This document shows, in pieces, positions 1 through 54,085 of a stretch of 64,000 bases of DNA (the stretch's first letter is position 1; each line of letters opens with the position of its first letter). The stretch spans positions 265,032 through 329,031 of the forward strand of contig JBDRTG010000047.1 of NCBI GenBank assembly GCA_043824255.1. Reading direction: 5' to 3'. This stretch comes from a bacterium (GTDB lineage: Bacteria > JAHJDO01). The notes under the pieces were generated by a model. The model did no database searches, was not told the DNA's origin, and worked only from the letters and a program-made list of their open reading frames with translations. Made by a program: the position numbers and the translations under genes.

Positions 1-151
1 AGATTGCCTTCACGAAAAAACATCTGAGATTACAACGTTTCGTTATTAGAAAACTAACTCTGACTGGAATACGTCTCCTGCTTAATCTGCTTTTTACAAG
101 ACTCAGCATTGCTTTTCTACCATTATAAAGGGTCTTTATTTGAGTTAACAT
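1..151 (-). CDS. Radical SAM protein, N-terminal fragment (runs off window edge; third cluster Cys not seen)
   Basis: Manual translation from ATG at 151 (GAGG upstream): MLTQIKTLYNGRKAMLSLVKSRLSRRRIPVRVSFLITKRCNLRCFFVKAI; ITxRCNLRC matches the start of a CxxxCxxC motif like the neighbouring gene. Confidence 0.6.
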   Translation of the reverse strand, partial: MLTQIKTLYNGRKAMLSLVKSRLSRRRIPVRVSFLITKRCNLRCFFVKAI

Positions 152-202
152 TGCTTCCTCTTTAACCTAATTTGTAAAAAAAGTTGTAAAGTTTCTTAAG
201 AA

Positions 203-1288
203 TCATCGGATAGTTCCTTCCAGAAAGCGATATTTAAAGTAATGAGAAAGAGGGAAGGTTATCCTGGGCTCAAAGTAGCAGATATACATATTTGTCTTAC
301 AGAGTTTGCATTTCTTTAGTTCTTCCAATTTTCCCCGATATTCCTTGCTATAAATGGTATTCAACAATCCTTCTTTTAATGGGAAGCCACGCTGCCAATT
401 CATTCCCGTAAGACAGGGGAAGAGGGTTCCATCCTCCTTTATTTCACAGTGATGGTAACCAAAGATACATCTTCCCTCAAAGATTCCCCTCATGGTATTT
501 TGAGAAAAATAATTGGGAATCTGTTTCAGAAAGTATCTGCTATTGACCACATTCTCCATGGGAAGAATAAAACGAACGAACTTTTTAATCTCCTGAATCT
601 CTTCTCTGTTACATTTTACTGGCGTACTCCTTGTGCTCTGCCCTTCGAATACTGGATGGTCGTTACGAGGCTGGAACTTATGAAGCAGACTATTCTCCCT
701 GACTAAGCGGCTAACCTCGTATAGGTCATGGATATTATGAGTGGAGATAATGGAATTAACTACTATAACAATCCTGGGCGCATGTTTTTTTAGATTTTCT
801 ATCGCTCTCCATGCACGGTCAAAGGAGCCCTTTACCCCTCGAATAGTATCATGCCTTTTCTGCAAACCATCTAAACTTATGGAAATCTCGTCTATTCCGG
901 TCCTAGCCAATTTCTTAGCCTGAAACTCGTCTATTTGGAACCCATTGGTTACCATGTGAACATACGGAATCTTCTTCTTGGCGTAGATTAGGCGCTGATC
1001 TAAATCCTCTACTAATAATGGCTCTCCTCCAGTAAGACTAACATAGTAACAGCCCAACCTTTCTAAATCATCAATGATATTTCGGTAAAGGACAAGTGGA
1101 ATGGTCTTCTTTTTGGGATTCCTCCAAATATTGCACATTTGACAGCGAAGATTACATCTATTGGTAATGTAGATACCGCAGGCGATTGGCCGTGGGTTTT
1201 TAAAGAGATAATAATTGAGATGCCAGAATAAGACTTTTTTGATTAAAACTCCTAAGTTATGGCTCGACCCTAAAATTACTTTTCTCAT
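203..1288 (-). CDS. Radical SAM protein with C-terminal SPASM/Twitch-like Cys cluster
   Basis: ITNRCNLRCQMC motif, TGGEPLL, ISISLDG; C-terminal C..GxLFPC..CKLC..C. Confidence 0.9.
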   Translation of the reverse strand: MRKVILGSSHNLGVLIKKVLFWHLNYYLFKNPRPIACGIYITNRCNLRCQMCNIWRNPKKKTIPLVLYRNIIDDLERLGCYYVSLTGGEPLLVEDLDQRLIYAKKKIPYVHMVTNGFQIDEFQAKKLARTGIDEISISLDGLQKRHDTIRGVKGSFDRAWRAIENLKKHAPRIVIVVNSIISTHNIHDLYEVSRLVRENSLLHKFQPRNDHPVFEGQSTRSTPVKCNREEIQEIKKFVRFILPMENVVNSRYFLKQIPNYFSQNTMRGIFEGRCIFGYHHCEIKEDGTLFPCLTGMNWQRGFPLKEGLLNTIYSKEYRGKLEELKKCKLCKTNMYICYFEPRITFPLSHYFKYRFLEGTIR

Positions 1289-2466
1289 TAGATATCTTTC
1301 GTTTTCATCTCTTGTAGTTTACCTATTTTTTTCTTAACCTCTTTCCAGACCTCTTCCACCGTGATAGCTTTTAAACATTTATTGTCCTTGCAATCACTGC
1401 TCTTGACATTATAGACATTCAAGCAGGGACTGCAGGGAAGGTCTTTATAGAAGACTGAGTGCTCACTCCCTACTGGACCGTAGAGAAAGGGAGTTTCTGG
1501 CCCAAAGAAGGATACAGTTGGTAATCTTAGTGCTGCTGCTAAATGGAGAGGTCCCGAATCATTACCAATTAAGAGATGGCAGCGTTCCAACAGAGCAATG
1601 AGTTCTCCTATTGTTATCTGACCACAGAGGTTTATAACCTGAGCAGGGAATTTTAATAGTCTTTGAAAACTTTCAACATATTCTTTATCTTCTTTACCTC
1701 CAATTAAAAATATTCTAATATTTTTTCTTTCAAGTAATCTTTTGCTCAGTTGGGCAAAATTTTCTTTTGGCCAACGCCTATTATAAAATAAGGAGTTAGT
1801 ATTAATATTCATAGAAACCAAAAGTTCAGAGTCATTAACGTGGTTCGTTTTGAACAATTTCTCAATCCTTTTCTTTTCTCTGAATGAAATAGAAGGTTTT
1901 TCTAAGGTTTTATCCTTTGTCTCAAGTCCTAAAACCTGCACCATCTTAAGGAAGATATCCATGATGTGCTTGCTATGGGCAAAAGAGACTTTTCTGGTAT
2001 AAAAGCCATTCCGCCAGAACTTATAGGTCTGAAAACCTACGGTATTCCTTGAGCCGGTGAGAAAGGTAATCAGGGCAGTAAAATTAGTAAAGAACTCAAG
2101 ATCAATTGCAAGGTCAAACTTCTCCTTTCGGAAAATAAGGAAGATTTTCCAAAGACTGATGAGGAAGATGAAAAAATTTCCAACATCCAGACATATTGTT
2201 TTATCTATAGTCTTTAGTACCTGACAGAGTTCTTTATTCTGGGATAAGGTCAAAAAGAGCAACTGACTTTCAGGAAATTTTTTCTTTATGGATTTTAAAG
2301 CGGGGGAAGCAAGCATGATGCTTCCCATTCCCCAGAACTTTATTATCAGAATCTTTCTAATCTCCCCAGTCTTTTTTGCGGGCAAGAATTTCCTTAAGGG
2401 GGATAACAGCATGCAAATCAAAGGCCCGAAATACTGGTCCATTCTTTTCATAGTATCAATCTTCAT
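1288..2466 (-). CDS. Glycosyltransferase family 9 (heptosyltransferase-like)
   Basis: ILIIKFWGMGS, RRWPKENF, LIGNDSGPLHLAAAL, FFGPE, CSPC motifs typical of GT9/WaaF-like proteins. Confidence 0.9.
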   Translation of the reverse strand: MKIDTMKRMDQYFGPLICMLLSPLRKFLPAKKTGEIRKILIIKFWGMGSIMLASPALKSIKKKFPESQLLFLTLSQNKELCQVLKTIDKTICLDVGNFFIFLISLWKIFLIFRKEKFDLAIDLEFFTNFTALITFLTGSRNTVGFQTYKFWRNGFYTRKVSFAHSKHIMDIFLKMVQVLGLETKDKTLEKPSISFREKKRIEKLFKTNHVNDSELLVSMNINTNSLFYNRRWPKENFAQLSKRLLERKNIRIFLIGGKEDKEYVESFQRLLKFPAQVINLCGQITIGELIALLERCHLLIGNDSGPLHLAAALRLPTVSFFGPETPFLYGPVGSEHSVFYKDLPCSPCLNVYNVKSSDCKDNKCLKAITVEEVWKEVKKKIGKLQEMKTKDI

Positions 2467-2629
2467 TTTCTGTTCCCTTGTATTTGGCTTCCATGGTCTC
2501 TAACTTCCACCATAATTCTTTCCTGTCAGAGCATCTTAAAAATCATTTTTTTCGTTTATGATAGTATCAGGAAACTCCTAAAATACAATTTATTATGCCT
2601 CCATCCTCCACACGAACCACATCTGATAT

Positions 2630-4129
2630 TTATAAAATTCGTCTCAAACTCCTCCTTAGAGTGTATAACAGGCCTTTACTCATAATTGACTTCAAGATAT
2701 TTGACCTCAAAATGAGCATTGGATTATGGAAAATCGTTTCTAACAGAGTAATTCTATTTGCCCGTTTTTTCCAACGCAGTAGATCGGAAGGCGAAAAATC
2801 CTTAGTTTTTAGTAAAGGTCTCTCCATTCCCATTAGATAATCGAAAGGTCCAATATTTTCCTTCAATAAATAATTATTCATTTTAGCATGCTTATACAAT
2901 TCAGTTCCTGGAAGAGGAACTGCTATGAAAAATATACAAAAAGCCCCCCTTCTAGCTAATTTGCGAGCAAAATTTAGAGAATTATTAAAAATAATTTCGT
3001 TTTCCCCAGGAATTCCAATAATAAAAAAACAACTCAGTGAAATATTCTCTTGAATAATAAGAGATGCATTTTCTTCCACTTTTTTTAGCGAAAGATCTTT
3101 CTTAATTATATTACTTAAAAAAGATTGGTCTCCTGATTCTACCCCTATGGTTAATCCTAAACAACCAACCTTTTTCATCTTCCTAATTAGAGAGCTTGAT
3201 AACCGATCGGCTCTAATTCCATTGGGTACGTCCCAGTATATCGACAACCCTTCATTTATTATTTTTTCACATAACTCTTCAACTCTTTCGGGAATCAATG
3301 TAAAATTGTCATCTTCAAACGAAATGCGATTTATATTGTAATTTTTGTAAAGAAATTTTAATTCTTCAACTATATTGTCAGGAGATCTAAAACGCCATTT
3401 GCGACCCCAAACCACATTGCTGGAACAAAATGTACATTTATATGGACATCCCCTACTTGTAATAATCCCTGCCCACCTACTACCAGTACTAACCGAATCA
3501 CGCCCGCCAACTCCATACTTAGTAGCATTAAAATATATATCTAACGGAATGAGGTGATAAGCAGGGAATGGTAAATCGTCCAGATTTTTTATTGGTTCTC
3601 GTTCTCCTGAAAACACAATTTCATTTGTTTTCTCCTCTCTGTAATATAACCCACTGACATCACTTATTCCGTCTCCTGCACCTAATGTTTGTATCAATTC
3701 CAATGCTGTTAATTCTCCTTCACCTTTAACTATGAAATCTATATTTTCATCCTTCATAGTATCAAAAGGCATTAAGGAGGGATGTGCTCCGCCAACAAAC
3801 ACAGGTTTATTAGTAATTTCTTTAATAATTTTTACTGTTTCATGCATACTTTCTGATTGAGTTGTAAACGAACACGATACTCCAAAAAAATCAGCTTTAG
3901 ACTTTTTTATGCAATTTTTAATCATATGCGGAGAGAGCCCGATTCTTATTCCTTCCTTATCTATTGGAATCCTATTTTTAAAACCTAAAGCCAGAGCATC
4001 TATTATTTCCACTTCAACGTCGTGTTTTTCAAGATATGAAGCAACGTACATAATACCTAATGGGTACGGAAGAATTATATCTCTACTGTTATGTACAATC
4101 CATGGTATTTGAATTAAGCAAACTTTCAT
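2630..4129 (-). CDS. Cobalamin (B12)-binding-domain radical SAM protein
   Basis: N-terminal PLGIMYVASYL, GGAHPS, GEGE; SRGCPYKCTFC; FEDDNF; GVESG. Confidence 0.9.
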   Translation of the reverse strand: MKVCLIQIPWIVHNSRDIILPYPLGIMYVASYLEKHDVEVEIIDALALGFKNRIPIDKEGIRIGLSPHMIKNCIKKSKADFFGVSCSFTTQSESMHETVKIIKEITNKPVFVGGAHPSLMPFDTMKDENIDFIVKGEGELTALELIQTLGAGDGISDVSGLYYREEKTNEIVFSGEREPIKNLDDLPFPAYHLIPLDIYFNATKYGVGGRDSVSTGSRWAGIITSRGCPYKCTFCSSNVVWGRKWRFRSPDNIVEELKFLYKNYNINRISFEDDNFTLIPERVEELCEKIINEGLSIYWDVPNGIRADRLSSSLIRKMKKVGCLGLTIGVESGDQSFLSNIIKKDLSLKKVEENASLIIQENISLSCFFIIGIPGENEIIFNNSLNFARKLARRGAFCIFFIAVPLPGTELYKHAKMNNYLLKENIGPFDYLMGMERPLLKTKDFSPSDLLRWKKRANRITLLETIFHNPMLILRSNILKSIMSKGLLYTLRRSLRRIL

Positions 4130-4130
4130 C

Positions 4131-5537
4131 TTATGTTTCTATTTTGCTAGCATCAGCGGCTGTTCCTTGCTTTATTAAATAAAAAGCATTTTTAAGGTCA
4201 AAAAGAATTTGCTTAGGCCTGCGAATATCTTGTAGTAAACGTCTAAACACATAAGCAGGTCGTAAGTGAAATTTTTTAGCTCCAGTGCCTCTAAACCTAT
4301 CCATATCTTCAAAAGTAAGTCCTTCGGGAATAAGAAAAGGCCAGTGTCCAAAGAATCCGTCGCCCAATTTATCCTGTATATAATCATCAATAATGCTAGT
4401 GCTTATTTTTCCTTGTTGTAAATACCAATCAAAATATCTGGTCCCAGGCAAAGGAATAGTAAGATGATAACCAACTAATTCAATGTTGTTAAAACCCATT
4501 TTTTCCAATTTCAGTGGGTAGTTAATAGTATCCCCTATCTCTGAAACTGTTTCTTCAGGATGACCAATCATAAAGAGCAGCTGTACGGGAAGGTTATACT
4601 TCTTGGTAATGGCCATGCCTCTAAATATTTTTTCGTCAGAAAGGTTTTTTTGCATTATTTCATTTCTAATTCTTTCATTACCACTTTCAATCCCTACCAA
4701 CAATGATATACAGCCCGCTTCTTTCAATAATTGCACCATTTCATCATCAATTAAATCAATTCTGGTAATCATCTGAAATTTTATTTTCAATTTTCTTTCA
4801 ATTATTAAACTACACAAAGAGATAATATGACTTCTATTAATAGTAGCGGAATCGTCATTAAAAAAAAACTGCTTAGTAAGAGGCATTCTTGTTAGCATTT
4901 CCTCAACGATATTTTGAGAGGATCTGCTACGAACTACCTTACTCATCGCAGCTCTTGCACAATATCCGCATTTATAAGGACATCCTCTTGTTCCTATGAT
5001 TGGGATTATATCCCCTCTTTTAAAAATAGTATTTTCTATGCTTTCAAAAGCAGGGAAAGGTAATTTGTCCAAATCCATAGGTGGGTTTGCTGTAAATATG
5101 CCCGTAGGTTTTTCTCCTTGCAATATTTTATTTATGTGCTCTACAATAATGTTATCCGCTTCTCCACAAATAGCACTATCAAAATAAGGATATCTATTAA
5201 TAACATCAGGGTCTACACTAATGTGAGAATTCCCTAATAATATATGTATTTTGTCTTTAAATCTTTCTTTGACTTCCTTCGCTAATTTTACCGTTGTACG
5301 AATTGTGGGGGTAATAGCGGAAATGCCTAATATTTTTACTTTTTCAGATTCGCACAGGCTTAATATATCCTCTGTAGAATATGCAACATTTGAATTATTA
5401 ATGGTACGAAAAGAAATATTTTCTTTTTTTAGCATTCCTGATAAATAAGAAAGTCCAATGTGATATACCTCGCCTCCTGAATTTGCCAAATGATTAGTAA
5501 CACTAACAGGAGGTTGAATTAATAAAAGGTCTGTCAT
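4131..5537 (-). CDS. Cobalamin-binding-domain radical SAM protein
   Basis: HIGLSYLSG, GNSHIS, GEAD; TRGCPYKCGYC; FNDDS; GIESG. Confidence 0.88.
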   Translation of the reverse strand: MTDLLLIQPPVSVTNHLANSGGEVYHIGLSYLSGMLKKENISFRTINNSNVAYSTEDILSLCESEKVKILGISAITPTIRTTVKLAKEVKERFKDKIHILLGNSHISVDPDVINRYPYFDSAICGEADNIIVEHINKILQGEKPTGIFTANPPMDLDKLPFPAFESIENTIFKRGDIIPIIGTRGCPYKCGYCARAAMSKVVRSRSSQNIVEEMLTRMPLTKQFFFNDDSATINRSHIISLCSLIIERKLKIKFQMITRIDLIDDEMVQLLKEAGCISLLVGIESGNERIRNEIMQKNLSDEKIFRGMAITKKYNLPVQLLFMIGHPEETVSEIGDTINYPLKLEKMGFNNIELVGYHLTIPLPGTRYFDWYLQQGKISTSIIDDYIQDKLGDGFFGHWPFLIPEGLTFEDMDRFRGTGAKKFHLRPAYVFRRLLQDIRRPKQILFDLKNAFYLIKQGTAADASKIET

Positions 5538-6748
5538 TTAATTGCTTTTTCTCCAATATTTTTTATTATACAGTCATAAATATATTTCGCCCGCACACTC
5601 CAATCCCATTCCTTAACAATTAAATTTCTTGCTTCATTGGAAAGCTTCAAATAATAGTCTTTATCACTCAAAAGTTTAATAATTTCCTCAGCGAATTTTC
5701 CATAATCATCTTGAGCCACCTTAATCATCCCTTTAGGATAATAAGTCTTCAATGACTCAAGATCAAAACTGACACCTGGAAGTCCCCAAGCCATAGCCTC
5801 TGCAGCTGCCATGCCGCCACTGTCATAGGTTGCAGGATGAAGCACAATTTTGCTTTGTTTAAAAATATCATATTTTTCTTCTCTATCTCTAAAGCCATGC
5901 GATTCAATATTATCTTGTAACCCGAATTTTTCAATCTTTTCTTTCACCTCTTTCTCAAGAGAACCATTACCTATCATTGCCAGTTTGGCCTGCGGTTTTT
6001 TCTTGCAAACCAATTTCCAGATATCAATAAGTTCTAACACTCCTTTTTGAGGATGAAATCTTCCTACAAAAACAGCATCGTATTTTCTTTTTTCAACAGG
6101 TATAACATTCCCTGAATTTGGATACTCGGTTGAAGGTTTTATATCCACGCCCCCACGAATTACCACGATTTTGTTTCTATTTCTTTTCTTTGTCACAAAT
6201 TTTCTCACATCCGGTTCGCTAGTCACAAAAACCATATCTGCGTATTTATTAACCAACCAATAAGTAGGCAACTGCATCAACCAATAAAATAGACCCTTTA
6301 AAAATCTTTTTCCTCTATAGGGAGAATCTTTTTGCCAAGGTTTTGGGGCAAAAAGATAAAATCCAGCAATCCATCTTGCCTTTTTATTTTTAATCTTCAT
6401 CATAAACGCGGGGATTGAATCCGGCCAGAAATCAGAAGCAGAGTATATAATACATGGTGATTTAAAATGATATTTCCATGATTTCATACATCCAATAATG
6501 ACCCGTGAAAAATAGAGTATAAAAAAACCGAATTTCTTAAATCTTGCAGCTGGCCAAATGATATAATTAACCCCTGTTAAATAATTTCTCTGACACATTT
6601 CAAGCCCTTCTTCCCAGACAAAAATATTTATTTTATGCCCCATTTGCGCCCATCGTTTTGCGCACTTAATAAATATATTATCTCCTCCACTAAAAAAAGG
6701 GCCTAATGCAGCATTAGCAATAATATTAATCGTTGAAACCTTATTCAT
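5534..6748 (-). CDS. Glycosyltransferase family 4 (GT-B)
   Basis: SGGD N-terminal motif; FVGRFHPQKG; DSGGMAAAEAMAWGLP. Confidence 0.9.
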   Translation of the reverse strand: MNKVSTINIIANAALGPFFSGGDNIFIKCAKRWAQMGHKINIFVWEEGLEMCQRNYLTGVNYIIWPAARFKKFGFFILYFSRVIIGCMKSWKYHFKSPCIIYSASDFWPDSIPAFMMKIKNKKARWIAGFYLFAPKPWQKDSPYRGKRFLKGLFYWLMQLPTYWLVNKYADMVFVTSEPDVRKFVTKKRNRNKIVVIRGGVDIKPSTEYPNSGNVIPVEKRKYDAVFVGRFHPQKGVLELIDIWKLVCKKKPQAKLAMIGNGSLEKEVKEKIEKFGLQDNIESHGFRDREEKYDIFKQSKIVLHPATYDSGGMAAAEAMAWGLPGVSFDLESLKTYYPKGMIKVAQDDYGKFAEEIIKLLSDKDYYLKLSNEARNLIVKEWDWSVRAKYIYDCIIKNIGEKAIK

Positions 6749-6847
6749 ACTTTAATCACAAATTATTAAGACATCGAAGTCTTTGTTCTCATGTAAATAG
6801 TATATATGGCGTTGCCACTTAAGCCTGAATCCTGTTCATCTTTCAGA

Positions 6848-7822
6848 TTATACTCTTGCACAAAATCTTATCCAGTCATTAGGCCCTCTCCACTCAGCTT
6901 CTAGATCTTCCAGTATCTGAGCACCCATAGTTGGCTTTCCAACAAAACTCTTTAACACCAATTCCACTGCCTGTAAAAAAGAGAAAAATTGTAGAACAAG
7001 TTTTCTTTCATAGCTAGGATGTAAATAGTGAATATTTGCTTGGGGATAAATTTTTTTAAATATTGACTTAAACTCCAGACGTTCTATTTCTATATCATCA
7101 AACCCTGTTTTTTCAAGCAAGTTAGATATGGATTTTGTATTAAAATGGAAAAGATGTAAATTATTGAAAACACTTTCCCTTATTACCTGTTCCAAAGAGT
7201 CCACATCCTTAGGAGTATAAGGCACTTCCCCAATAAAATAACCGCCATCTTTCAGAAGCTGTTTTATGTCTTTGAGTTCCTCTGTTGGATCTCCTAAATG
7301 CTCCAGTACATGATAGGAAAATATAATATCATAGGCATTCTTATGCTGAGATAACAAATCCTGTATGCTAGTGGCAGTAGGAGTTATGTTAAACTTGTTG
7401 GTAGAAACGCTGGACTCTAATTTCGATGGCTCTACCCCTCCAACTCTTGCACCCCTTTTTTTTAGTTCATGGAGAAACTTCCCATTAGCGGAACCTATTT
7501 CCAGAATGTTCTTGCCTCGTAAACCTATTCCTTTACTGGCTAAATAGCGAAACCTTTCTTTTATTCGCATATTGGTGAAATACCACGAAAATAGACCGAC
7601 TAAATAGGTGGCGGTTTTTTTTCGGTGATAACTTTTATACTTTAGAGAGTATTGCTGGTTATAGAATCTCTGAATTTCATCAAAATCAGGCATAGGATTA
7701 ACAAACGCTAAATCGCAATAATTGCATCTTGTAATATCCCTAAGCATATTGAATTCACTGTTCACTGCTATATTCTTAAACTCTTTGCAACCGCAGGATA
7801 TACACTCAAGCTTATAATTCAT
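6848..7822 (-). CDS. Class I SAM-dependent methyltransferase with N-terminal Zn-ribbon
   Basis: CISCG..CNYC; ILEIGSANG; YHVLEHL; EVP. Confidence 0.88.
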   Translation of the reverse strand: MNYKLECISCGCKEFKNIAVNSEFNMLRDITRCNYCDLAFVNPMPDFDEIQRFYNQQYSLKYKSYHRKKTATYLVGLFSWYFTNMRIKERFRYLASKGIGLRGKNILEIGSANGKFLHELKKRGARVGGVEPSKLESSVSTNKFNITPTATSIQDLLSQHKNAYDIIFSYHVLEHLGDPTEELKDIKQLLKDGGYFIGEVPYTPKDVDSLEQVIRESVFNNLHLFHFNTKSISNLLEKTGFDDIEIERLEFKSIFKKIYPQANIHYLHPSYERKLVLQFFSFLQAVELVLKSFVGKPTMGAQILEDLEAEWRGPNDWIRFCARV

Positions 7823-7833
7823 GATTTAACCAT

Positions 7834-9324
7834 TTAATCTCTAAAAAAATTCTTAAAATAAAACATTTCGTTTTTTATCACACTAAAGAATATAAGACCA
7901 AAACCTGCTTTTAATTGTACGATTACCTTAACAAACGGTAAAAGAAAATAAGGGATTCTTTGAAATGCAGTAAATAAAAATTTACTATTTATTATTTTCC
8001 TCACCCACTTTTTCGGTAATAAAGGCAGGCAAGTAATTAAAAAAGCATATTTTTGGTAATCACCAAAGGAATCATCTTTACCAGTAATACCTATAGAAGA
8101 ATATCTGTTTTTCTTGCCTTTATTTATCATATCAACATCCGACTCATTTATAAGTCCTGCTTTTTTGCCAATTTCTACAATCTTTGTCCCAGGAAAATAA
8201 AGCAGTCTGAAACAATTTATTATATGTGGATGGATTATATTAAAAAAATTTATAGACTCTTTTATTGTTTTTTCACTGTCCATAGGCAAGTTTAAAATAC
8301 AGTCCACTGCAAAATTAAGACCATATTTTCTGCAAGCTTTCGTTATTTTCAAAACCTGCTCGTTTTTTTCTCCACGATCTAAAACAGTCTTTCTTATTTC
8401 AGAACACCCTGTTTGTAATCCAAAATCAACCAGCGTACATCCAGCATCTTTCAGCAGTTTTACAGTTTCTTCTTTTGTAAGACTAGGATGTGCCAGACAA
8501 TTGAAAGGTAAATTTATTTTTTTTTGGTAATCCTTGCTAAATTCTCTCAGCCAATCTATATCCAAAGAAAATATATCATCCATGAAGACAAAATGTTTGG
8601 ATTTATAAACATTTTTTCTCCAGAGAAGTTCAGCGATTACATTTTTTACACTTCGCTGACGTACCCAGTGAAGTGACCCTGAATCCTTGTAGAGCTTTTT
8701 CATAACCTGATTCCCGCAATATGTACAACTGAAAGGACATCCCCTACTTGTTAATACTGAGGGGCTGATTCTATATGAAGGAGGTAACTGTTCATAAAAC
8801 AAATCCTCGTCAGGAAATGGATATTTATCCAAATTGACTTCTAATTCTGGCAGGGAATTTTTTATAATCTCTTCCCCCTCTTTAAACCAGATCCCTCTAA
8901 TGTTCCTTTTCTGTAATCGTGTATTCATTAACTCTAACAGAGACTCCTCTGCTTCTCCTAAAGCAATCATATCTACCTGTGGATTTGAAATAACTTCCTC
9001 TGGCACTACTGTAGGATGAGGACCTCCAAAAATTATAGGGATATGGAAATGTTTTTTAAAAAGGTCTGCTTTTTCAAGCGCCCACTGATAATTAGCAGTA
9101 ACTACGGAAAAGCCTATTAAATCAGGGGTTATCTCTTTTATTTTTTTTAGAAACATGCTGTTTTTGGAGAACAAATTTTTAAGCTTTTGATTTCTTATGT
9201 AAGCTTTATTAAAAAACATTGGATCAAATAGCAAATAAGTCTTATGCCCATATTTCTTAAGATAACTTGAAAGATATCCAATGCCCAGCCACTTGTCCTC
9301 TGAACACACAAATAGTATTTTCAC
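7834..9324 (-). CDS. Cobalamin-binding-domain radical SAM protein
   Basis: LGIGYLSSYL, GGPHPT, GEAE; SRGCPFSCTYC; FMDDIF; GTG start. Confidence 0.9.
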   Translation of the reverse strand: MKILFVCSEDKWLGIGYLSSYLKKYGHKTYLLFDPMFFNKAYIRNQKLKNLFSKNSMFLKKIKEITPDLIGFSVVTANYQWALEKADLFKKHFHIPIIFGGPHPTVVPEEVISNPQVDMIALGEAEESLLELMNTRLQKRNIRGIWFKEGEEIIKNSLPELEVNLDKYPFPDEDLFYEQLPPSYRISPSVLTSRGCPFSCTYCGNQVMKKLYKDSGSLHWVRQRSVKNVIAELLWRKNVYKSKHFVFMDDIFSLDIDWLREFSKDYQKKINLPFNCLAHPSLTKEETVKLLKDAGCTLVDFGLQTGCSEIRKTVLDRGEKNEQVLKITKACRKYGLNFAVDCILNLPMDSEKTIKESINFFNIIHPHIINCFRLLYFPGTKIVEIGKKAGLINESDVDMINKGKKNRYSSIGITGKDDSFGDYQKYAFLITCLPLLPKKWVRKIINSKFLFTAFQRIPYFLLPFVKVIVQLKAGFGLIFFSVIKNEMFYFKNFFRD

Positions 9325-9407
9325 ATTCTGAGTTCCTTCAAAGTAGTTTTTAGATTTTCCCCCGAGAAGACGATGCGTGTATTATATTTGTAAGTAAAAA
9401 GATTCAT
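9321..9407 (-). CDS. Possible 28-aa small ORF or gene remnant filling the intergenic space
   Basis: ATG at 9407, 4 nt after the upstream stop; MNLFTYKYNTRIVFSGENLKTTLKELRM*; TGA overlaps the GTG start of the next radical SAM. Confidence 0.3.
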   Translation of the reverse strand: MNLFTYKYNTRIVFSGENLKTTLKELRM

Positions 9408-9411
9408 AATA

Positions 9412-13259: not shown

Positions 13260-13399
13260 ATTTTTTTACTCAAATACCTCATTCCCAATGCAATCCTTAA
13301 CACATACATTCCAAAGCTGAGCAAGGGATGGGACAAAAGCCTGAACATTTTTCCATTTTCAACAAACACTCCAAAAAATCTATACCAAAATCCCAATCC
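13256..13399 (-). pseudogene. Orphaned 3' end of a GT2 glycosyltransferase (diverged copy of the C-terminus of 14822..15682)
   Basis: Translates GLGFWYRFFGVFVENGKMFRLLSHPLLSFGMYVLRIALGMRYLSKKI*; 29 bp identical between 13362-13390 and 14979-15007; in-frame TGA directly upstream; its stop overlaps the ATG at 13259. Confidence 0.85.
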
Positions 13400-13412
13400 T
13401 CATGACCTGATC

Positions 13413-14801: not shown

Positions 14802-14808
14802 AATGACT

Positions 14809-14836
14809 ATTATGCCCTAATTTAAGTCAATGTCAA
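14809..14836 (-). promoter_or_regulatory. Sigma70-like promoter for the AAA ATPase, overlapping the GT2 3' end
   Basis: Minus strand TTGACA-16nt-CATAAT, 7 nt before ATG 14801; TGACT/AGTCA inverted pair flanks the -10. Confidence 0.5.
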
Positions 14837-15682
14837 TAACTTTAAGTAAAAAACTTGAACTTTATCTTTGCTGCAAAATTTAGCCAACAAATACCTTATC
14901 CCTACTAATATTCTCAATCCATACATTCCACCACTTAGCATTGGATATCTCAGCAATCTCCTCCACTTTCCATTCTCTACAAACACTCCAAAAAATCTAT
15001 ACCAAAAACCCAATTGCTTTCTTATTATCTTATCATTCTTTCCCCATTTGTTAATATATTCATTAACTGTCTTAGCATAATAAGATTTTTTATTTGTATA
15101 TCTTTTGAGATTAAACAGCCCTTCGTTGTGATATATTGGAGTATTTACTATATCTATCGTGCCAACTTTTTTGATCCTTCTATCAAAATCCCAATCTTCG
15201 GGACCAGTTAAACTCTCATCAAATCCACCAATCTCCATGAATTTATCTCTGCGGACAAATCGAACGCAATCTATTACTGTTGCATTATAAAAACTTCTTT
15301 CAAAGTCTCTCACCTTCACCCAAAATCCTTTACCGATTATTTTCTCCGGAATATACAAGGCAACATACCCATCTTTTTCGCATTTTTCTACACATTCAGA
15401 TATGAGATTTTCGGATAGTATCATATCTGCATCCAAATACAGAATATATTTCCCCTTTGCTTTCTCAATTCCAAAGTTTCTTTGGGCAGAGCGCTCAGGA
15501 CCGAAATTATAAACCCTCTCTGTATACTCATAGGCAATTTCTTTTGTTCTGTCTGTTGAGTTATTGTCCACTACGATTATTTCAATTTTGTCCTGAGGAT
15601 AAGTCACATTTCTAATTGACCTCAAACAATTCTTTATGTTTTTCTCTTCGTTTTTAGTTGTGATAATTACTGAAACATCCAT
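14822..15682 (-). CDS. Glycosyltransferase family 2
   Basis: VSVIITTKNEE, VVDNNSTD, RNFG, YLDAD, GPEDWD. Confidence 0.92.
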   Translation of the reverse strand: MDVSVIITTKNEEKNIKNCLRSIRNVTYPQDKIEIIVVDNNSTDRTKEIAYEYTERVYNFGPERSAQRNFGIEKAKGKYILYLDADMILSENLISECVEKCEKDGYVALYIPEKIIGKGFWVKVRDFERSFYNATVIDCVRFVRRDKFMEIGGFDESLTGPEDWDFDRRIKKVGTIDIVNTPIYHNEGLFNLKRYTNKKSYYAKTVNEYINKWGKNDKIIRKQLGFWYRFFGVFVENGKWRRLLRYPMLSGGMYGLRILVGIRYLLAKFCSKDKVQVFYLKLLTLT

Positions 15683-15712
15683 TAAATATGTCTGTCCTTA
15701 TTTTTTTCTTTT

Positions 15713-17191
15713 TCATTTTTTAAAATCCGTTAAATGCCCAAGAACTGATTTTACTGCGCGCAGTATAAAAATTATATCATCAAAGTCCCTTATGGAAGTT
15801 ATAGTTCTGAATATAAACCCGGGGGTTATGAAGGACTTGTAAAGTCCCTGTGTAAATTGCTTTACATCAGCATCTGTGAGAGGTGTTTTCATTACAGGTT
15901 CCTGCATGTCATATCTGTTCCAATCCAGAGTTCTCAACTGATTGCCTTTTTTGCATTCGTCAAAAAGAGGCGTTCCCGGATATGGTATTACTATTGTAGC
16001 TTGCAGTGTATTCACATAGCCCTTGCGAAAAAGCTCCTTTGCAAGCTGGATTGTCTTTAACGCATCTTCCCTGGTTTCCCATGGATATCCTATCATTGTT
16101 GTAAGATGCGGATGCAGGCCTGCTTTCTTAGCCATTCTTGCGCCTTCTGTTATTGCAGAAACCTTGAGGTTTTTATGTATCCTATCAAGTGTTTCCTGTC
16201 TTGCAGATTCAAGTCCGTAGAGTATAAACCTGAAACCAGCTTTTGCCATTAAATCATAATCCTTCTGTTTTAACGCGCCGAATCTCATATTACAGTTAAA
16301 TCTTATTTTTTTATTATATCCTTTCTTTATCATTCCATCGCAAAACTCCGTCAGCCATTCTCCAACAGGGAATGTCCCTGTATCATCCATAATCTCTTTT
16401 ATGTGATATTTATCAATCAATATTCCTATCTCATCCAGAACATGTTCCGGCTTTCTGGTTCTAAAATTCGGATAGAGCGTGGTCCATGAACAAAACTTAC
16501 ACTTCCCCCACCAGCAGTCTCTTCCTGCCATTATGTAAGTGCCGGGTGTCCGCTTATAATTGCCGTTCTTATAAGCATATAACTTCCACTTTGTTAAATC
16601 TCTGTCAATAAAGGGAATGGTATTTAGATCATGGTCAAGCTTGAATTTTCCTGTGTTTTTTATTTCTCCGTTTTCTCTATACCATATACCCGGTTCTAAT
16701 TGAATTTTGAATTTTGAATTTTGAATTTTGAATTTTTTTAGTGCACGACATAGGTTAAGGAGAAGGAAATCATAGTCTCCACCGGTCAGGATAAAATCAA
16801 CATTGCAGTTTTTCATGCTTTCTTCTGGTAATGCAGTCACATGATCGCCTACAAGGGCAATTTTGAGTTTTAAATTTTGAATTTTTAATTCGTTGATGAT
16901 TTTCCAGTGCTGTTTGACTACCGGCGTTTTTGTTTCCATCATTATCAAATCAGGATTTTCTTCAGCAACAAAATTTAGAAATTCTTTATACGTCTTCTTC
17001 TCGGCTATTCCGTCATACCAGATCACCTCATATCCAGCATTCTTGAGCAGGGTTGCAGCGCAGGCAGGAACAACGGGATAAATGTAGGTAGGACTGTGAA
17101 ACCATTGAAACTGTCTGTTCTGGGAAAGAAGAGGGATCAGTTTCTTGTTTCCTTTGCAGCTAAGCGGCGGATACGCGATGACTATTTTCAT
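15713..17191 (-). CDS. Cobalamin-binding-domain radical SAM protein (CX4CX2C variant)
   Basis: B12-domain-type N-terminus, GDHVT; GRDCWWGKCKFC; DDTGTF; YGLES; PYPGTPL. Confidence 0.87.
   Translation of the reverse strand: MKIVIAYPPLSCKGNKKLIPLLSQNRQFQWFHSPTYIYPVVPACAATLLKNAGYEVIWYDGIAEKKTYKEFLNFVAEENPDLIMMETKTPVVKQHWKIINELKIQNLKLKIALVGDHVTALPEESMKNCNVDFILTGGDYDFLLLNLCRALKKFKIQNSKFKIQLEPGIWYRENGEIKNTGKFKLDHDLNTIPFIDRDLTKWKLYAYKNGNYKRTPGTYIMAGRDCWWGKCKFCSWTTLYPNFRTRKPEHVLDEIGILIDKYHIKEIMDDTGTFPVGEWLTEFCDGMIKKGYNKKIRFNCNMRFGALKQKDYDLMAKAGFRFILYGLESARQETLDRIHKNLKVSAITEGARMAKKAGLHPHLTTMIGYPWETREDALKTIQLAKELFRKGYVNTLQATIVIPYPGTPLFDECKKGNQLRTLDWNRYDMQEPVMKTPLTDADVKQFTQGLYKSFITPGFIFRTITSIRDFDDIIFILRAVKSVLGHLTDFKK
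16700..16734. repeat. Perfect heptamer tandem repeat (TTGAATT)x5 within coding sequence
   Basis: Read directly; encodes KFKIQNSKFKIQ; second degenerate period-7 array at about 16859-16893. Confidence 0.9.
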
Positions 17192-18156
17192 TCTTCTTCC
17201 AGCCTTCTGGAAAGTAATCCTTTTATAAAAAAGATCCCGTAGGCAAAATGCGTAGAGATAATTCCCGGAAATACTAAAAGATTTCCGGACTTTACTGTTT
17301 CAAATGCTACTGAAATCAGATATATGCCAAGTATAATAAAGTACACAGATCTAAAGAAAACACAAAGTCCTGTAAAGAATGCTCCTGTTACTATTCCAGC
17401 AACAAGCAATGAAGGAACAAAATAGGAAAACTTTTTAGATGTCTGAGGAAATCTCTTAACAAAATAGCCCCTGTGTTTAGCATAACTGGTAACCTGTTTG
17501 AGATGTTCTTTAAACAAACGTCTTCTATGATGATACACCAGGGCATTGGGTTCGTATATTATTTTCTTTCCTAATTTTTTTGTTATCTCCAGACATAAAA
17601 CGGTATCCTCTCCAGGCCAGAAATTGGTATTGAATCCTCCTGATTGTTCAAAGATATTTTTTCTTACAATCAAATTACATGACGGAAAGTCTTCGACTTC
17701 TTTTCTTGTTCTTTTGATATATCTATAACTATATTCTCCACTAACAAGTTTTGATGAATATACCAATCCGCTGGCTTTTTGCATAACATCGTCCTTATCA
17801 GGAGTTATAGCAGGTCCACCAACAGCCGCTACTTCCGGGTCAATGAAATTCCGAACTGCATTTTTTAACCAATTTTTTGCCGGATAAACATCATCATCTA
17901 TGAATGCAACAATTTCTCCTTTAGCTTTTTTAACTCCCATATTTCTCTTCATTGCAGGGCCTGTCTCGCCTGTAGGAATAACGGAGACATCTTTGTAATT
18001 CAGGCTCACTTCTTTATCCGGCAGAAATATAATCTCAAATTCCGGATAGTCAAGCGCAAGACAACTCCCTATACATTCTGCCAGATATTCAGAGACATCT
18101 TTTGCAATTACTATTATTGAGACAAAAGGGTATTTTGAATCAGCTCTTTCTTTCAT
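17188..18156 (-). CDS. Glycosyltransferase family 2 with C-terminal transmembrane helices
   Basis: VSIIVIA, KRNMG, FIDDD, GEDT, hydrophobic C-terminus. Confidence 0.9.
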   Translation of the reverse strand: MKERADSKYPFVSIIVIAKDVSEYLAECIGSCLALDYPEFEIIFLPDKEVSLNYKDVSVIPTGETGPAMKRNMGVKKAKGEIVAFIDDDVYPAKNWLKNAVRNFIDPEVAAVGGPAITPDKDDVMQKASGLVYSSKLVSGEYSYRYIKRTRKEVEDFPSCNLIVRKNIFEQSGGFNTNFWPGEDTVLCLEITKKLGKKIIYEPNALVYHHRRRLFKEHLKQVTSYAKHRGYFVKRFPQTSKKFSYFVPSLLVAGIVTGAFFTGLCVFFRSVYFIILGIYLISVAFETVKSGNLLVFPGIISTHFAYGIFFIKGLLSRRLEEE

Positions 18157-19384
18157 GAAAAATCAATCCGAAATTTATCAATACAAGCAGTGTCCCGCAG
18201 ATTAAAAGTACATATATAACCTGTTCCAGTGATTTGTGAAACATACATATTAACCCGACTTGCACTATTGTCATAATTACAAGCGCAATAACAAAACTAA
18301 TCTTATGTCTTGCAATATGAAAGCCGTTGATTATTCCTATAAGCGCGTATGGAAGCATAGCAAGCCCAAAAATCCATAAGAGATTTACATTACCGGTATA
18401 TCTGCCGCGTGAAATCAATCTCAATAGAAAATCAGGGAATAGAAAGAAGATAAATATGCCTATCGAGCATACGAGAAGTGCGAATAGAAGAACCTTTTTT
18501 AAAATTGGAAGAGTATTCTTATTGATTGTATGCGCTTCAGCCACCATTGGGAACATGACCACTACTATTGCTCCGGGCAGATACAGGATGCTTTTTCCAA
18601 GCACGGATATTGCCGCATATTGGCCTGCGATATCCGCAGAGAAATAGTGCTTCACAAGTGTCATGTCAATCATTGTTAATACTGCGTAAAATGAAATCGA
18701 CATAGCCACTGGGAGACAAAAAAGAAGCATTTCTTTCTTGTATTTTTTTACTGATTCAATTTTTACTTTTATAATATCCTTTATCACTTTACCAAGTATC
18801 AAAATCACTGTTACGCTAGCTACTACAGAAGCAAGAATTGCTCCATTCAATCCGAACCCCAGCCATACAAGCAGAGCTCCGCTTCCAATCCTTGAAAAAG
18901 GGCCTAAAATTTGACTTAAAGCAATATAATTAAATCTCTGCATTCCTGTCGCTACGGCTAAAAATAAACTTAAAATACAGGAAATGGAAAACGAGAAACT
19001 AACTATTATTATAGGAGATACATGCTCTAACTTGTAGTAATCCATAATCTGGAATCTGGCTGCAAAAATTAAAATAGAAACAATAATTCCTGCTGGAACA
19101 ATATACTTGAAAGATTTAAGAATAATCCCCTTTATCTTCCCAAATTCGTTTTTACCTTTGAATCCTGCGATATACTTTGTGATAACTAAGCTTATAGTTC
19201 CTGTTCCTATTGAAATTATTACTCCAAATGAGAACAGTGCGTTCATAGCCCCAAAATCAGCGACAGAGAGATTTCTTCCCATAAAGAATTGGAAAAGATA
19301 TTGAAAGAAGTTGCCTGCCATTGCAGCAACAAAAAGCAATGCACTGTTTTTATACAGAGAATCTTTTTTAATGAATGCTAACAT
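18140..19384 (-). CDS. Oligosaccharide flippase (Wzx / MOP family)
   Basis: About 12 hydrophobic segments; RNLSVADFG; IDMTLVKHYFS..AGQYAA. Confidence 0.85.
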   Translation of the reverse strand: MLAFIKKDSLYKNSALLFVAAMAGNFFQYLFQFFMGRNLSVADFGAMNALFSFGVIISIGTGTISLVITKYIAGFKGKNEFGKIKGIILKSFKYIVPAGIIVSILIFAARFQIMDYYKLEHVSPIIIVSFSFSISCILSLFLAVATGMQRFNYIALSQILGPFSRIGSGALLVWLGFGLNGAILASVVASVTVILILGKVIKDIIKVKIESVKKYKKEMLLFCLPVAMSISFYAVLTMIDMTLVKHYFSADIAGQYAAISVLGKSILYLPGAIVVVMFPMVAEAHTINKNTLPILKKVLLFALLVCSIGIFIFFLFPDFLLRLISRGRYTGNVNLLWIFGLAMLPYALIGIINGFHIARHKISFVIALVIMTIVQVGLICMFHKSLEQVIYVLLICGTLLVLINFGLIFHERKS

Positions 19385-19395
19385 AAATACACCAC

Positions 19396-19419
19396 AACAA
19401 GGGGTTGAAACCCCTTGTT
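19396..19419. repeat. Perfect 11-bp inverted repeat (REP-like hairpin) inside the operon
   Basis: AACAAGGGGTT-GA-AACCCCTTGTT between the epimerase and flippase genes; no U-tract on the minus strand. Confidence 0.6.
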
Positions 19420-19433
19420 CACTTATTCTCCCA

Positions 19434-20477
19434 TTATCTGAATAATGATCTGTTCTTATTGACCCAGTCGGACAGTTTCTTTACTCCAGTTTCTACGTCT
19501 GTTTTGGGCTGCCATGCAAGCTCTTTTCTTGCTTTCTCAATGCTGCATACAAACACGGGCTGATCACCGGGCCGCCAATCACTGAAACTGTATTCTGTTT
19601 TTTTATTTAAGAATCTCTCAAGAAAGGAAATAAGTTCAAGCAAAGACATTTTATTACCAGGGCCACCGCCTATGTTATAGATTTTTCCGGAAGCAGCTTC
19701 TATATTCTCTATGGCTTTTTCATATGCATCAACTAAATCATCAATAAACAGTACGTCTCTAACCTGTTTCCCGTCTCCATAGATTGTAATTGGTTTATCC
19801 ATTGATGCAGCTATTGTAAACCACGCAACCCAGCCCTGGTCTTCTACGCCAAATTGTCTGTATCCATAAATGCAGCTCTGGCGCATAACAACAGTTCTCA
19901 GTCCGTATATTCTGGAATAATCTCTAACATACTGATCAGCTGCGCCCTTTGAGCAGCCATAAGGGGAATGAAAATCCAATATTCTATTCTCAGAGATTCC
20001 CTCTGGCAGAGACTCGTATTCATATCTGCCGTTTCTTTCAATCACTTTTATGTCAGTCATCCCTCCATAAACCTTGTTTGTGGAAGCGTAAATAAATATT
20101 GGATTAAGCTTATTTTCTCTTACTGCTTCCAGAAGATTAAATGTGCCAAGCGCATTTATCTGGAAATCTTCTCTTGGTTCTAAAACAGAAGTTGTAACAG
20201 CTACCTGCGCAGCAAGATGAAGCACAACATCAATGCTATTTTCCCGAAAGCCTTTCGGGACAAAAATCTTCTTGACCTTTGCATAATCTCTGATATCACA
20301 ATCTATGAACTCAAATTCTCCCTGTTTCCTGAGCCAGCCAAGATTATCTTTAGAACCCTTTCTTGAGAGATTGTCCAGAACCGCTACCTCATACCCTTTG
20401 TCTATAAACCGTTTTGCAGCATTACAACCGATAAATCCGGCACCGCCTGTTATTAATATCTTCAATCTTTGTACCAT
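19434..20477 (-). CDS. rfbE: CDP-paratose 2-epimerase (CDP-tyvelose epimerase)-like NAD-dependent epimerase
   Basis: ITGGAGFIG; STNKVYG; SPYGCSKGAADQY; EDQGWVAWF; GDGKQVRD resemble tyvelose epimerase. Confidence 0.75.
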   Translation of the reverse strand: MVQRLKILITGGAGFIGCNAAKRFIDKGYEVAVLDNLSRKGSKDNLGWLRKQGEFEFIDCDIRDYAKVKKIFVPKGFRENSIDVVLHLAAQVAVTTSVLEPREDFQINALGTFNLLEAVRENKLNPIFIYASTNKVYGGMTDIKVIERNGRYEYESLPEGISENRILDFHSPYGCSKGAADQYVRDYSRIYGLRTVVMRQSCIYGYRQFGVEDQGWVAWFTIAASMDKPITIYGDGKQVRDVLFIDDLVDAYEKAIENIEAASGKIYNIGGGPGNKMSLLELISFLERFLNKKTEYSFSDWRPGDQPVFVCSIEKARKELAWQPKTDVETGVKKLSDWVNKNRSLFR

Positions 20478-21460
20478 TTAATAGTTTCTCTAAGCCCCTT
20501 TTCCAGGCTGCAAACTGGTTTCCATCCCAGAAGCCTTTCTGCTTTGGTGCTTGACAGGTATTGATTGTTTATTTCTCCTTTGCTTTTACCCTTGCCTTTT
20601 ATAACAGGCTTCAAAGACTTGCTTCCGGAAACCGCAATAATTTTCTTTACTAAATCCAATACTTTTACCGGACTATTTGACCCAAAATTAAATGCTTCAC
20701 CTTTTATGCCTTTTTCATCAGCCTTTTCTGCAGCAATAAGATACGCACTAACTGCATCGTCAATATAGATATAATCTCTTAGCGGGGTTCCATCGCTCCT
20801 GATAATTGGATCCTTATTCTGAAGAATAGATCTAATTGTGTCTGGAATAATTCTTGAGAAATTCAGGTCCCCGCCTCCATAAATATTAGCACATCTTGTT
20901 ACAACAATCGGCATATCATATGTACAGGCATAAGTTCTCGCAAGTATGTCAGTACATGCCTTTGATGCATCATATGGATGGAGTGCATTTAGCGAATAGG
21001 ACTCTTTATATGGTAAATCTTGCTGCTCTCCATAAGCCTTATCACTGGATGCTATAACTATTCGCTCTAGCCCTATATTCCTTGCTGCCTCAAGAATATT
21101 CCATGTGCCCCTTATATTGGATTCAAATGTAGAAATAGGAGACTTATTTGCAATTCCCACTATTGTCTGCGCTCCAATGTGGAAGCATGAGTCTATATTG
21201 TGCTCATTAAAGATACGAGCTATAAGCTGATAATCTATAAGATCTCCCTTTACAACAGCTTCCAGGCTGTTATAAACATTTTTCATATTTGTCAGGACTG
21301 AGCCAGGGATCCAATCTCTAATCAAAACCACTACTCTTGCGCCAGAGTCAACCAATGCCTTTGTAAGCCACGAGCCTAAAAATCCGTTTGCGCCTGTAAT
21401 AAATACTCTTTTATTCTTCCAGAATTTCCTATCCGTTTCTTTACTCATACCTTCTCCCAT
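20462..21460 (-). CDS. CDP-glucose 4,6-dehydratase-like SDR
   Basis: FWKNKRVFITGANGFLGSWL; SSDKAYG; PYDASK; NIYGGGD; RIIPD. Start may be 21448. Confidence 0.75.
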   Translation of the reverse strand: MGEGMSKETDRKFWKNKRVFITGANGFLGSWLTKALVDSGARVVVLIRDWIPGSVLTNMKNVYNSLEAVVKGDLIDYQLIARIFNEHNIDSCFHIGAQTIVGIANKSPISTFESNIRGTWNILEAARNIGLERIVIASSDKAYGEQQDLPYKESYSLNALHPYDASKACTDILARTYACTYDMPIVVTRCANIYGGGDLNFSRIIPDTIRSILQNKDPIIRSDGTPLRDYIYIDDAVSAYLIAAEKADEKGIKGEAFNFGSNSPVKVLDLVKKIIAVSGSKSLKPVIKGKGKSKGEINNQYLSSTKAERLLGWKPVCSLEKGLRETIKWYKD

Positions 21461-21484
21461 AATATGTTTTTAACAGTGTTGTGA

Positions 21485-21513
21485 ATTATATTATATTAAG
21501 CATGAAATAGCAA
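21485..21513 (-). promoter_or_regulatory. Sigma70 promoter heading the left glycan operon
   Basis: Minus strand TTGCTA-17nt-TATAAT. Confidence 0.6.
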
Positions 21514-21652
21514 TTTTAAAAGCAAGCAGGCACCCGATATCCATCGGAATAGAGTATTTTTAAACGGTGTTTAACAACAACTTTGTTGACAAACAAGAAA
21601 TTATGTTGGAACATATGGAACAATGAAAGGAGTCAATTTGAGGAGAAATAAA

Positions 21653-54072: not shown

Positions 54073-54085
54073 AATTTGTATTTTT

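Follow-up and report, generated by a model that had tools for sequence, protein, structure and literature searches.

Class B radical SAM genes among the glycosyltransferases of an envelope-glycan operon: a candidate system for radical tailoring of surface sugars

Class B radical S-adenosylmethionine (SAM) enzymes form one of the largest reservoirs of proteins of unknown function, and the few members known to act on sugars are, to our knowledge, all from antibiotic pathways. Here a locus of an uncultured, groundwater-type bacterium is described in which such genes are interspersed with glycosyltransferase (GT) genes. It occupies positions 203-21460 of a stretch of 64,000 nucleotides (the window; contig C47, positions 265032-329031, written C47:265032-329031) from an assembly of 2.02 Mb (51 contigs, 87 % complete). 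Five radical SAM genes with a B12-binding domain are found in this part, and judged from gene content and neighbourhood the locus probably modifies the carbohydrate moiety of an envelope glycoconjugate by radical chemistry.

Among the described systems, HpnI-HpnK-HpnJ is one of the closest. In PMC13459092, HpnJ is described as following the glycosyltransferase HpnI and HpnK, and its proposed role is contraction of the glucosamine ring on bacteriohopanetetrol; a similar sugar rearrangement is proposed there for calditol synthase on an archaeal lipid. In the Hpn system a family 2 glycosyltransferase (GT2) thus puts a sugar on a lipid, a neighbouring B12-domain radical SAM enzyme is proposed to rearrange that sugar, and the order GT2 then radical SAM is also the conserved core of the family of gene 15713-17191 described below. 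The differences are considerable: matches to HpnJ reach 126-247 bits here against a cut-off of 577.6, searches and annotation gave neither a squalene-hopene cyclase nor an HpnK-type deacetylase, HpnI is not matched by the partner GT2, and the setting is a Wzx-type glycan locus with many different radical SAM enzymes instead of one.

GenK, GenD1, Fms7 and MoeK5 belong to the same enzyme class and act on sugars, MoeK5 in a phosphoglycolipid pathway. They come from actinomycete secondary-metabolite clusters with one or two such enzymes per pathway, whereas 13 to 17 class B radical SAM genes lie in envelope-glycan loci here (GenK, GenD1 and MoeK5 being compared by description only). According to the review PMC9204698, most annotated members of the class are proposed methylases; HpnJ, MoeK5 and Fom3 co-localise in the sequence network of the class, and SD1168, with unknown substrate, falls in the same main cluster. 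Searches of full-text papers, supplementary files aside, found no description of B12-type radical SAM genes in lipopolysaccharide (LPS), capsule or exopolysaccharide loci. An Omnitrophota preprint places GT group 1 and radical SAM in one Pfam co-occurrence module of giant proteins. The NCBIfam GT family glyco_rSAM_CFB (TIGR04157), with sub-threshold matches at the locus, indicates by its name that curators are aware of GT-radical SAM neighbourhoods at the annotation level. What distinguishes the present locus, read as glycan biosynthesis with class B radical SAM sugar tailoring, is its scale, as a single array holds 13 such genes and a single contig of the 2-Mb genome holds 17.

Operon structure and radical SAM enzymes

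Positions 203-21460 hold 16 genes, all on the minus strand according to the open reading frame (ORF) listing and Pfam; the only plus-strand ORF of at least 100 amino acids (aa) there measures 106 aa and is nested within the Wzx gene. Five junctions overlap (by 1, 4, 4, 17 and 16 nt), a sixth overlap (ATGA) with the stop codon of the upstream radical SAM gene is obtained if the double GT4 gene starts at the in-frame ATG 11739, and the remaining gaps measure 1-163 nt. Three of the five B12-domain radical SAM genes are translationally coupled to a GT gene. An earlier description drawn from the letters alone (the sequence-only reading) had proposed a co-oriented, tightly coupled operon with five B12-domain radical SAM enzymes, and both points were confirmed, the latter by PF02310 and PF04055 above gathering scores in 5/5; the class I methyltransferase, GT2, GT4, GT9 and Wzx flippase that it had listed were all matched by Pfam. 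Its gene inventory had overlooked the AAA_14/DUF4143 ATPase at 13413-14801, and the operon, although present, continues past position 203 and out of the window. Positions 203-21460 are the promoter-proximal fifth or so of an array at C47:193069-286491 (93,423 bp, 4.6 % of the assembly), in which every one of the 76 ORFs (>=80 aa) is on the minus strand and 97 % of the sequence is coding. Beyond 203-21460 the array adds eight B12-domain and three plain radical SAM genes, as assigned by Pfam.

All six radical SAM enzymes of 203-21460 scored below every NCBIfam curated cut-off. HpnJ (TIGR03471) was the best match for three of the five B12-domain enzymes (11736-13259, 246.6 bits; 15713-17191, 154.7 bits; 7834-9324, 126.4 bits), with 150.1 and 105.2 bits for the other two. 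Gene 2630-4129 was nearest to the Sden_1168 family (NF038361, 213.9 bits; cut-off 575), and 4131-5537 gave several matches of about 105 bits against cut-offs of 360-750. Membership of the five in the BchE, HpnR, MiaB/RimO and tRNA-modification families was rejected with scores far under the cut-offs, as was membership in the ribosomally synthesised and post-translationally modified peptide (RiPP) families ApyD and rSAM_ocin_1, in PhpK and in the AprD4 family; the clustering with non-glycan enzymes that the sequence-only reading had singled out as fatal to it hence did not materialise, the cut-offs for BchE, HpnJ, HpnR, MiaB and tRNA modification being reached by none of the enzymes. A hopanoid pathway was likewise rejected, since HpnJ scores stay under the cut-off and a search of the 87 %-complete genome for squalene-hopene cyclase (PF13243) gave no match.

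The below-threshold matches to lipid enzymes (rSAM_ladder_B12, HpnR) and to the RiPP enzymes named above, together with two FemAB-type genes in a neighbouring block, would fit radical SAM enzymes that modify a non-sugar part, such as the lipid carrier, the tail of a glycolipid or an attached peptide, and merely travel with the GT genes. We consider this very unlikely: the lipid and RiPP cut-offs were not approached, the cyclase was not found in the assembly at its stated completeness, and the annotated genes of the array include no fatty-acid, polyketide, isoprenoid or precursor-peptide genes. Modification of the sugar itself is preferred.

The 17 B12-domain radical SAM ORFs of the contig are all full length (422-902 aa). 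CX3CX2C is found in 16/17 of them and in 4/5 within 203-21460, the exception being 15713-17191 with CX4CX2C. Identity to the nearest paralogues (best three matches each) is 24-41 %, with 41 % between 7834-9324 and a paralogue at C47:230687; recent duplication as the source of the many genes was therefore rejected, and the paralogues are, by their divergence, old and distinct. They are more clustered than chance predicts. B12-binding matches number 22 genome-wide, of which 17 lie on C47 at 188-330 kb, all on the minus strand; this 142-kb span is about 7 % of the assembly, and an even spread predicts about 1.5. Radical SAM matches number 40, with 26 on C47, and the genome holds 34 GT4-type and 20 GT2 matches.

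Many of these genes might also be degenerating or superfluous passengers of a hypervariable region subject to horizontal exchange, with only a small contribution to the product. Mobile-type genes do interrupt the array (two AbiEii, encoding type IV toxin-antitoxin nucleotidyltransferases, and two AAA_14/DUF4143 ATPases, all in the same orientation), and gene content varies among congeners. Set against this are the cluster motifs kept in 17/17 full-length enzymes, the dense coding of the array with its overlapping genes, and the lack of stop codons inside any match, and we judge the passenger explanation most improbable; a set of working tailoring enzymes is the better reading.

The AlphaFold (AF2) model of 15713-17191 (pLDDT 87.9) was compared by using Foldseek and resembled MgmA, AprD4, TsrM, OxsB, CysS and TokK (TM 0.63-0.70, 13-17 % identity). 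The predicted structure thus has the class B fold, from which the reaction is not readable; the ESM Atlas returned unnamed 'B12-binding radical SAM' clusters only. AprD4 (6fd2) and MgmA (9ccb) are the closest solved structures by sequence and fold, AprD4 being the closest solved relative of 11736-13259 (E 3.9e-18) and acting on an aminoglycoside sugar. Identity is only 13-17 %, and their reactions differ: AprD4 (apramycin C3'-deoxygenation) is a diol dehydratase, whereas the substrate methylated by MgmA is a glutamine of a protein; the fold is thus no guide to the reaction. For each enzyme, the choice between methylation and ring contraction, dehydration or epimerisation is not decidable from sequence or fold. 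With CobS, CbiB and a BtuF-like binding protein among the products of the genome, supply of a cobamide is plausible.

Two further genes with a possible corrinoid connection were noted, a URO-D-family protein at window positions 27587-28660 and a stand-alone 218-aa B12-binding protein at C5:13167-13499, the best B12 match of the genome; taken together, these may point to methyl transfer via a corrinoid in a system separate from the glycan locus.

A conserved GT2-radical SAM pair and linkage to glycosyltransferases

Database comparison places 15713-17191 in a large family without a name, whose bacterial and archaeal members share 50-69 % identity. At least 6632 relatives were found at E <= 1e-40; the best 120 of these (61-100 % identity, 61-69 % for those from outside the genus) have generic names only and came from bacteria and Methanoperedens archaea. 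In the genome set that was searched, the phylum of the organism is represented by nine genomes of one genus (eight congeners besides the present one). Orthologues were present in 6/8 congeners (88-92 % identity), and matches were found in 20/292 other genomes (36-66 % identity, 18 of them at >=50 %). Alignment of the orthologues showed 90/492 positions to be invariant, and the CX4CX2C cluster motif is family-wide (RDCx4CxFCSW in 16/17 aligned orthologues).

Twenty loci were fetched around these orthologues; three belonged to congeners, in 14 unrelated ones the radical SAM gene was recovered by the ORF caller, and three of high GC content were dropped because it was not recovered. Directly upstream of the radical SAM gene, 3/3 congener and 10/14 unrelated loci have an orthologue of the GT2 at 17188-18156, and in 13/14 unrelated loci a GT gene is found within 3 kb. 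This GT2 has two to three C-terminal hydrophobic segments (residues 243-311), and its best PDB relatives are GalT1 and PglI. The GT2 on the other side recurs as well: homologues of 14822-15682 adjoin the radical SAM gene in three loci and lie within 3 kb in three more, and in a further one (L053) a 671-aa ORF beside the radical SAM gene matches this GT2.

For the remaining four enzymes a GT gene was adjacent in 6/11 loci of the 11736 type (within 3 kb in 7/11), 5/19 of the 7834 type (7/19; two loci were dropped, the centre gene not being recovered), 2/5 of the 4131 type (2/5) and 3/11 of the 2630 type (3/11). The baseline was 10 %, this being the share of random 1.5-kb spans in this GT-rich genome, outside the array, with a GT2 or GT4 domain within about 3 kb. 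The association with GT genes that the sequence-only reading had taken to be decisive was thereby borne out, since in other phyla, too, homologues adjoin GT genes clearly more often than the baseline predicts. The juxtaposition of a 4131-type and a 2630-type radical SAM gene recurs in two other genomes.

These neighbourhoods bear on the stage at which the sugar is modified. The radical SAM enzymes may act on soluble nucleoside diphosphate (NDP)-sugar precursors before transfer, in which case the array would encode many unusual donor sugars. Genes of short-chain dehydrogenases/reductases (SDR), aminotransferases and nucleotidyltransferases are indeed interspersed in the array, and in one locus (L065) the radical SAM gene lies between two DegT aminotransferase genes with no adjacent GT gene. 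Coupling in the array is, however, mostly with GT genes and not with NDP-sugar enzymes, the conserved family is constantly accompanied by a GT2 with a membrane anchor, and one paralogue is fused to a GT4. MoeK5 acts after glycosyl transfer to the lipid, which also counts against soluble precursors. HpnJ, a precedent close in sequence space, is likewise placed after the transfer to a lipid in PMC13459092. Modification of NDP-sugars is therefore rated as unlikely, and within carbohydrate tailoring lipid-linked substrates are favoured on the basis of gene arrangement.

Separately, a 1.4-Mb genome of another family (G114) was found to share a block of genes with C47:212949-220023. On its contig C35, which holds two of the fetched loci (L042 and L058), three genes, for an 837-aa multi-pass membrane protein, a GT2 and an asparagine synthase, encode proteins that are 74-80 % identical to their counterparts, and G114 also has the GT2-radical SAM core (53-65 % identity). 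The similarity suggests exchange of a glycan cassette between lineages or else an unrecognised relationship.

Gene content, variability and type of glycan system

The array comprises 13 B12-domain and four other radical SAM genes, at least 19 GT genes (two PMT_2 and two YfhO included), seven class I methyltransferase genes, rmlABCD-like genes, a GFO/DegT/hexapeptide trio and AsnB (Pfam). WbpB/E/D-like genes and GT-C enzymes occur in the wider array, two multi-pass membrane proteins of 1062 and 837 aa have no Pfam match, and the contig carries three Wzx-like genes. These surroundings (rmlABCD-like, WbpB/E/D-like, AsnB, GT-C and Wzx-like genes) agree with the envelope-glycan locus proposed before. 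The features are collected in Table 1.

Table 1. Features of the operon, listed from the promoter side, and selected genes further along contig C47 (positions without prefix are window positions).
Position	Strand	Feature	Pfam matches and remarks
21461..21622	.	Divergent intergenic region, probable promoter	Before plus-strand PHP-domain gene; promoter inferred
20462..21460	-	Extended-SDR NDP-sugar 4,6-dehydratase-like, first operon gene	PF16363, PF01370
19434..20477	-	Second extended-SDR NDP-sugar dehydratase/epimerase	PF16363, PF01370
18140..19384	-	Wzx-like (MOP family) flippase	PF01943 Polysacc_synt, E 1.3e-12; 11 hydrophobic segments
17188..18156	-	Membrane-anchored GT2, partner of CX4CX2C radical SAM	PF00535
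15713..17191	-	B12-domain radical SAM, CX4CX2C	PF02310, PF04055
14822..15682	-	GT2, often after CX4CX2C radical SAM	PF00535
13413..14801	-	AAA_14/DUF4143 ATPase	PF13173, PF13635
11736..13259	-	B12-domain radical SAM, HpnJ-like but under cut-off	PF02310, PF04055
9412..11739	-	Double GT4, two complete units	PF00534 x2, PF13439 x2; longest ORF starts 11874
7834..9324	-	B12-domain radical SAM	PF02310, PF04055
6848..7822	-	Class I SAM methyltransferase	PF13489, E 1.7e-22
5534..6748	-	GT4, 4-nt overlap with next radical SAM gene	PF00534
4131..5537	-	B12-domain radical SAM	PF02310, PF04055
2630..4129	-	B12-domain radical SAM, nearest Sden_1168 family	PF02310, PF04055
1288..2466	-	GT9, heptosyltransferase-like	PF01075, E 3e-32
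203..1288	-	Radical SAM without B12 domain, cysteine-rich C-terminus	PF04055, PF13353 (Fer4_12) only
C47:207075-208313	-	Second AAA_14/DUF4143 ATPase	Pfam
C47:205365-206153, 211351-212112	-	Two AbiEii genes	Pfam
C47:185683-188391	-	902-aa B12-binding + Radical_SAM + complete GT4 fusion	Neighbouring block

Some of the narrower assignments made before had to be revised. The CDP-sugar (cytidine diphosphate) enzymes are better described as two NDP-sugar SDR enzymes: a CDP assignment was obtained only below threshold, with CDP-glucose 4,6-dehydratase as the best NCBIfam match of 20462-21460 (200.7 bits; cut-off 278.45) and dTDP-glucose 4,6-dehydratase (dTDP being thymidine diphosphate) as that of 19434-20477 (203.8 bits; cut-off 365.1), and no cytidylyltransferase was found in the stretch. 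Relatives of 20462-21460 in three congeners scored 671-718 bits in phmmer. The supposed SPASM/Twitch enzyme at 203-1288 does have a radical SAM core, with CX3CX2C spanning residues 45-52, and its C-terminus contains several cysteines, some of them in a CX2CX6C run; a SPASM/Twitch domain was not matched in Pfam (no PF13186 match at E <= 0.001), and SPASM-family NCBIfam matches were mostly core-only and far under their cut-offs. The heptosyltransferase II model gave 122 bits for the GT9 at 1288-2466 (cut-off 134.6), and the best NCBIfam match of the GT2 at 14822-15682 was TIGR04283 (101.7 bits; cut-off 182). Promoter and terminator scans of positions 1-20000 were at the level of shuffled sequence (78 vs 72.5 and 12 vs 12.0, respectively), so no internal operon boundaries were set. 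An Rfam scan of the window gave two tRNAs only, both distant from the locus.

The number of B12-binding matches per congener ranges from 3 to 21 (n=8). The congener loci share a head (SDR, SDR, Wzx, GT2 and the CX4CX2C radical SAM gene) beside PHP and shikimate-kinase genes and then diverge. Apart from the CX4CX2C enzyme, the B12-domain radical SAM enzymes of the operon vary from species to species: an orthologue of 11736-13259 was found in 1/8 congeners (93 % identity), one of 4131-5537 in one congener at 36 % identity, and one of 2630-4129 in 0/8 at E <= 1e-80. By gene content, a conserved head with a divergent remainder is the pattern of a hypervariable surface-glycan locus, as in O-antigen-type loci. 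Relatives of 11736-13259 at 35-57 % identity occur in metagenome-assembled genomes labelled Elusimicrobia/Endomicrobia, Elusimicrobiaceae, WOR-3, Nitrospinota, Omnitrophota and others. The ATPase at 13413-14801 had no match among the three fetched congener loci (L035-L037), and the two radical SAM genes that flank it touch each other in the genome G005; it is probably an insertion and not a pathway enzyme.

LpxC, a lipid A gene, is present in the genome, so the cell probably has LPS. Wzx/Wzy O-antigen and capsule loci resemble the array in their Wzx-like flippases, their many GT and NDP-sugar genes and their variability between related species. They differ in that no Wzy_C, initiating phosphoglycosyltransferase or chain-length regulator gene was found in the array, in the four GT-C enzymes and two more large multi-pass membrane proteins of the array, and in its 93 kb and radical SAM load, which are far beyond the usual. 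Elsewhere in the genome PF04932 (Wzy_C) has five matches, four above the cut-off and none on C47; Bac_transf has one match, on C11, and PF00953 has three, on C26, C18 and at C47:7619, again none in the array. A classical Wzx/Wzy O-antigen design is consequently not supported, nor is the resistance to phages or glycosidases that the sequence-only reading had suggested. The unannotated multi-pass membrane proteins could be polymerases. From its genes, the design looks more like one in which lipid-linked sugars or short oligosaccharides are flipped and then transferred outside the cytoplasm, because three Wzx-like genes, four recognisable GT-C enzymes and several short GT2 genes are present.

The large membrane proteins (PMT_2, YfhO, 1062-aa and 837-aa; C47:247237-253226, 208400-215462 and 237261-240085) each adjoin a protein of 330-364 aa with 6-7 hydrophobic segments and no Pfam match, a pairing that is repeated. 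At C47:255901-258877, a 509-aa AICARFT/IMPCHase-like protein and a membrane protein of the alkaline-phosphatase/sulfatase type are encoded within the array next to a short-chain dehydrogenase and a radical SAM gene; in a locus of another genome (L073) a radical SAM gene is likewise found beside an alkaline-phosphatase-type gene. A separate Wzx-type glycan locus extends on the minus strand from window positions 52129-64000 to about C47:335000. It has three more B12-domain radical SAM genes, an asparagine synthase, a 623-aa fusion of GT4 and class I methyltransferase, a GT2, a Wzx-like gene, a GT10-like protein, a methyltransferase and a DegT aminotransferase. The radical SAM-GT4 fusion of the neighbouring block directly follows the second Wzx gene and precedes the two FemAB-family genes.

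Proposed pathway and implications

In the proposed pathway, a lipid carrier would receive a sugar or oligosaccharide from GTs at the cytoplasmic face, and a class B radical SAM enzyme, its gene usually adjacent to or overlapping a GT gene, would edit the sugar just installed. The chemistry could be C-methylation, as for MoeK5 and GenK, or a contraction, rearrangement or dehydration, as for HpnJ, calditol synthase, OxsB and AprD4. Class I methyltransferases may then add O- or N-methyl groups, Wzx-like flippases would export the product, and the GT-C-type membrane enzymes (PMT_2- and YfhO-like) further down the array may transfer it to its final acceptor.

Several points weigh against this account. 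For three of the five enzymes, whose homologues are only 30-41 % identical, a GT gene is linked in no more than a modest share of the loci (27-40 %); GT detection relied on a crude ORF caller and on models and phmmer queries derived from proteins of this same genome, and the related genomes in the linkage counts are not independent samples. The radical SAM-GT4 fusion is confined to the genus, with three full-length relatives (79-85 % identity) among 230 hits. Neither Wzy_C nor a Bac_transf or WecA/MraY-type gene, from which the carrier and the initiation step might be read, lies within the array. AprD4, among the closest solved relatives, has a B12-like domain yet is not known to bind cobalamin, so the label 'cobalamin-dependent' is not established for these enzymes. 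The lipid-linked substrate, the type of radical chemistry, the product, real use of cobalamin and the final acceptor are what we infer from the genes.

Radical tailoring of an envelope sugar is retained as the probable function. A bolder version is offered tentatively and may well prove wrong: an assembly line, of a kind not yet described for cell envelopes, in which every sugar that a GT adds to a lipid carrier has a class B radical SAM enzyme dedicated to its editing, to give a surface polymer rich in C-methylated, carbocyclic or rearranged sugars, with the GT2 and CX4CX2C radical SAM pair as an ancient core reaction common to thousands of bacteria and archaea.

The membrane GT2 and its one radical SAM partner make up a small test system, which could reveal a widespread modification of envelope sugars in uncultured anaerobes. 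If C-methylated or carbocyclic products are indeed formed, the reading of envelope chemistry in these lineages would change, with a bearing on the degradability of glycans in sediments and groundwater and on the diversity of phage receptors.

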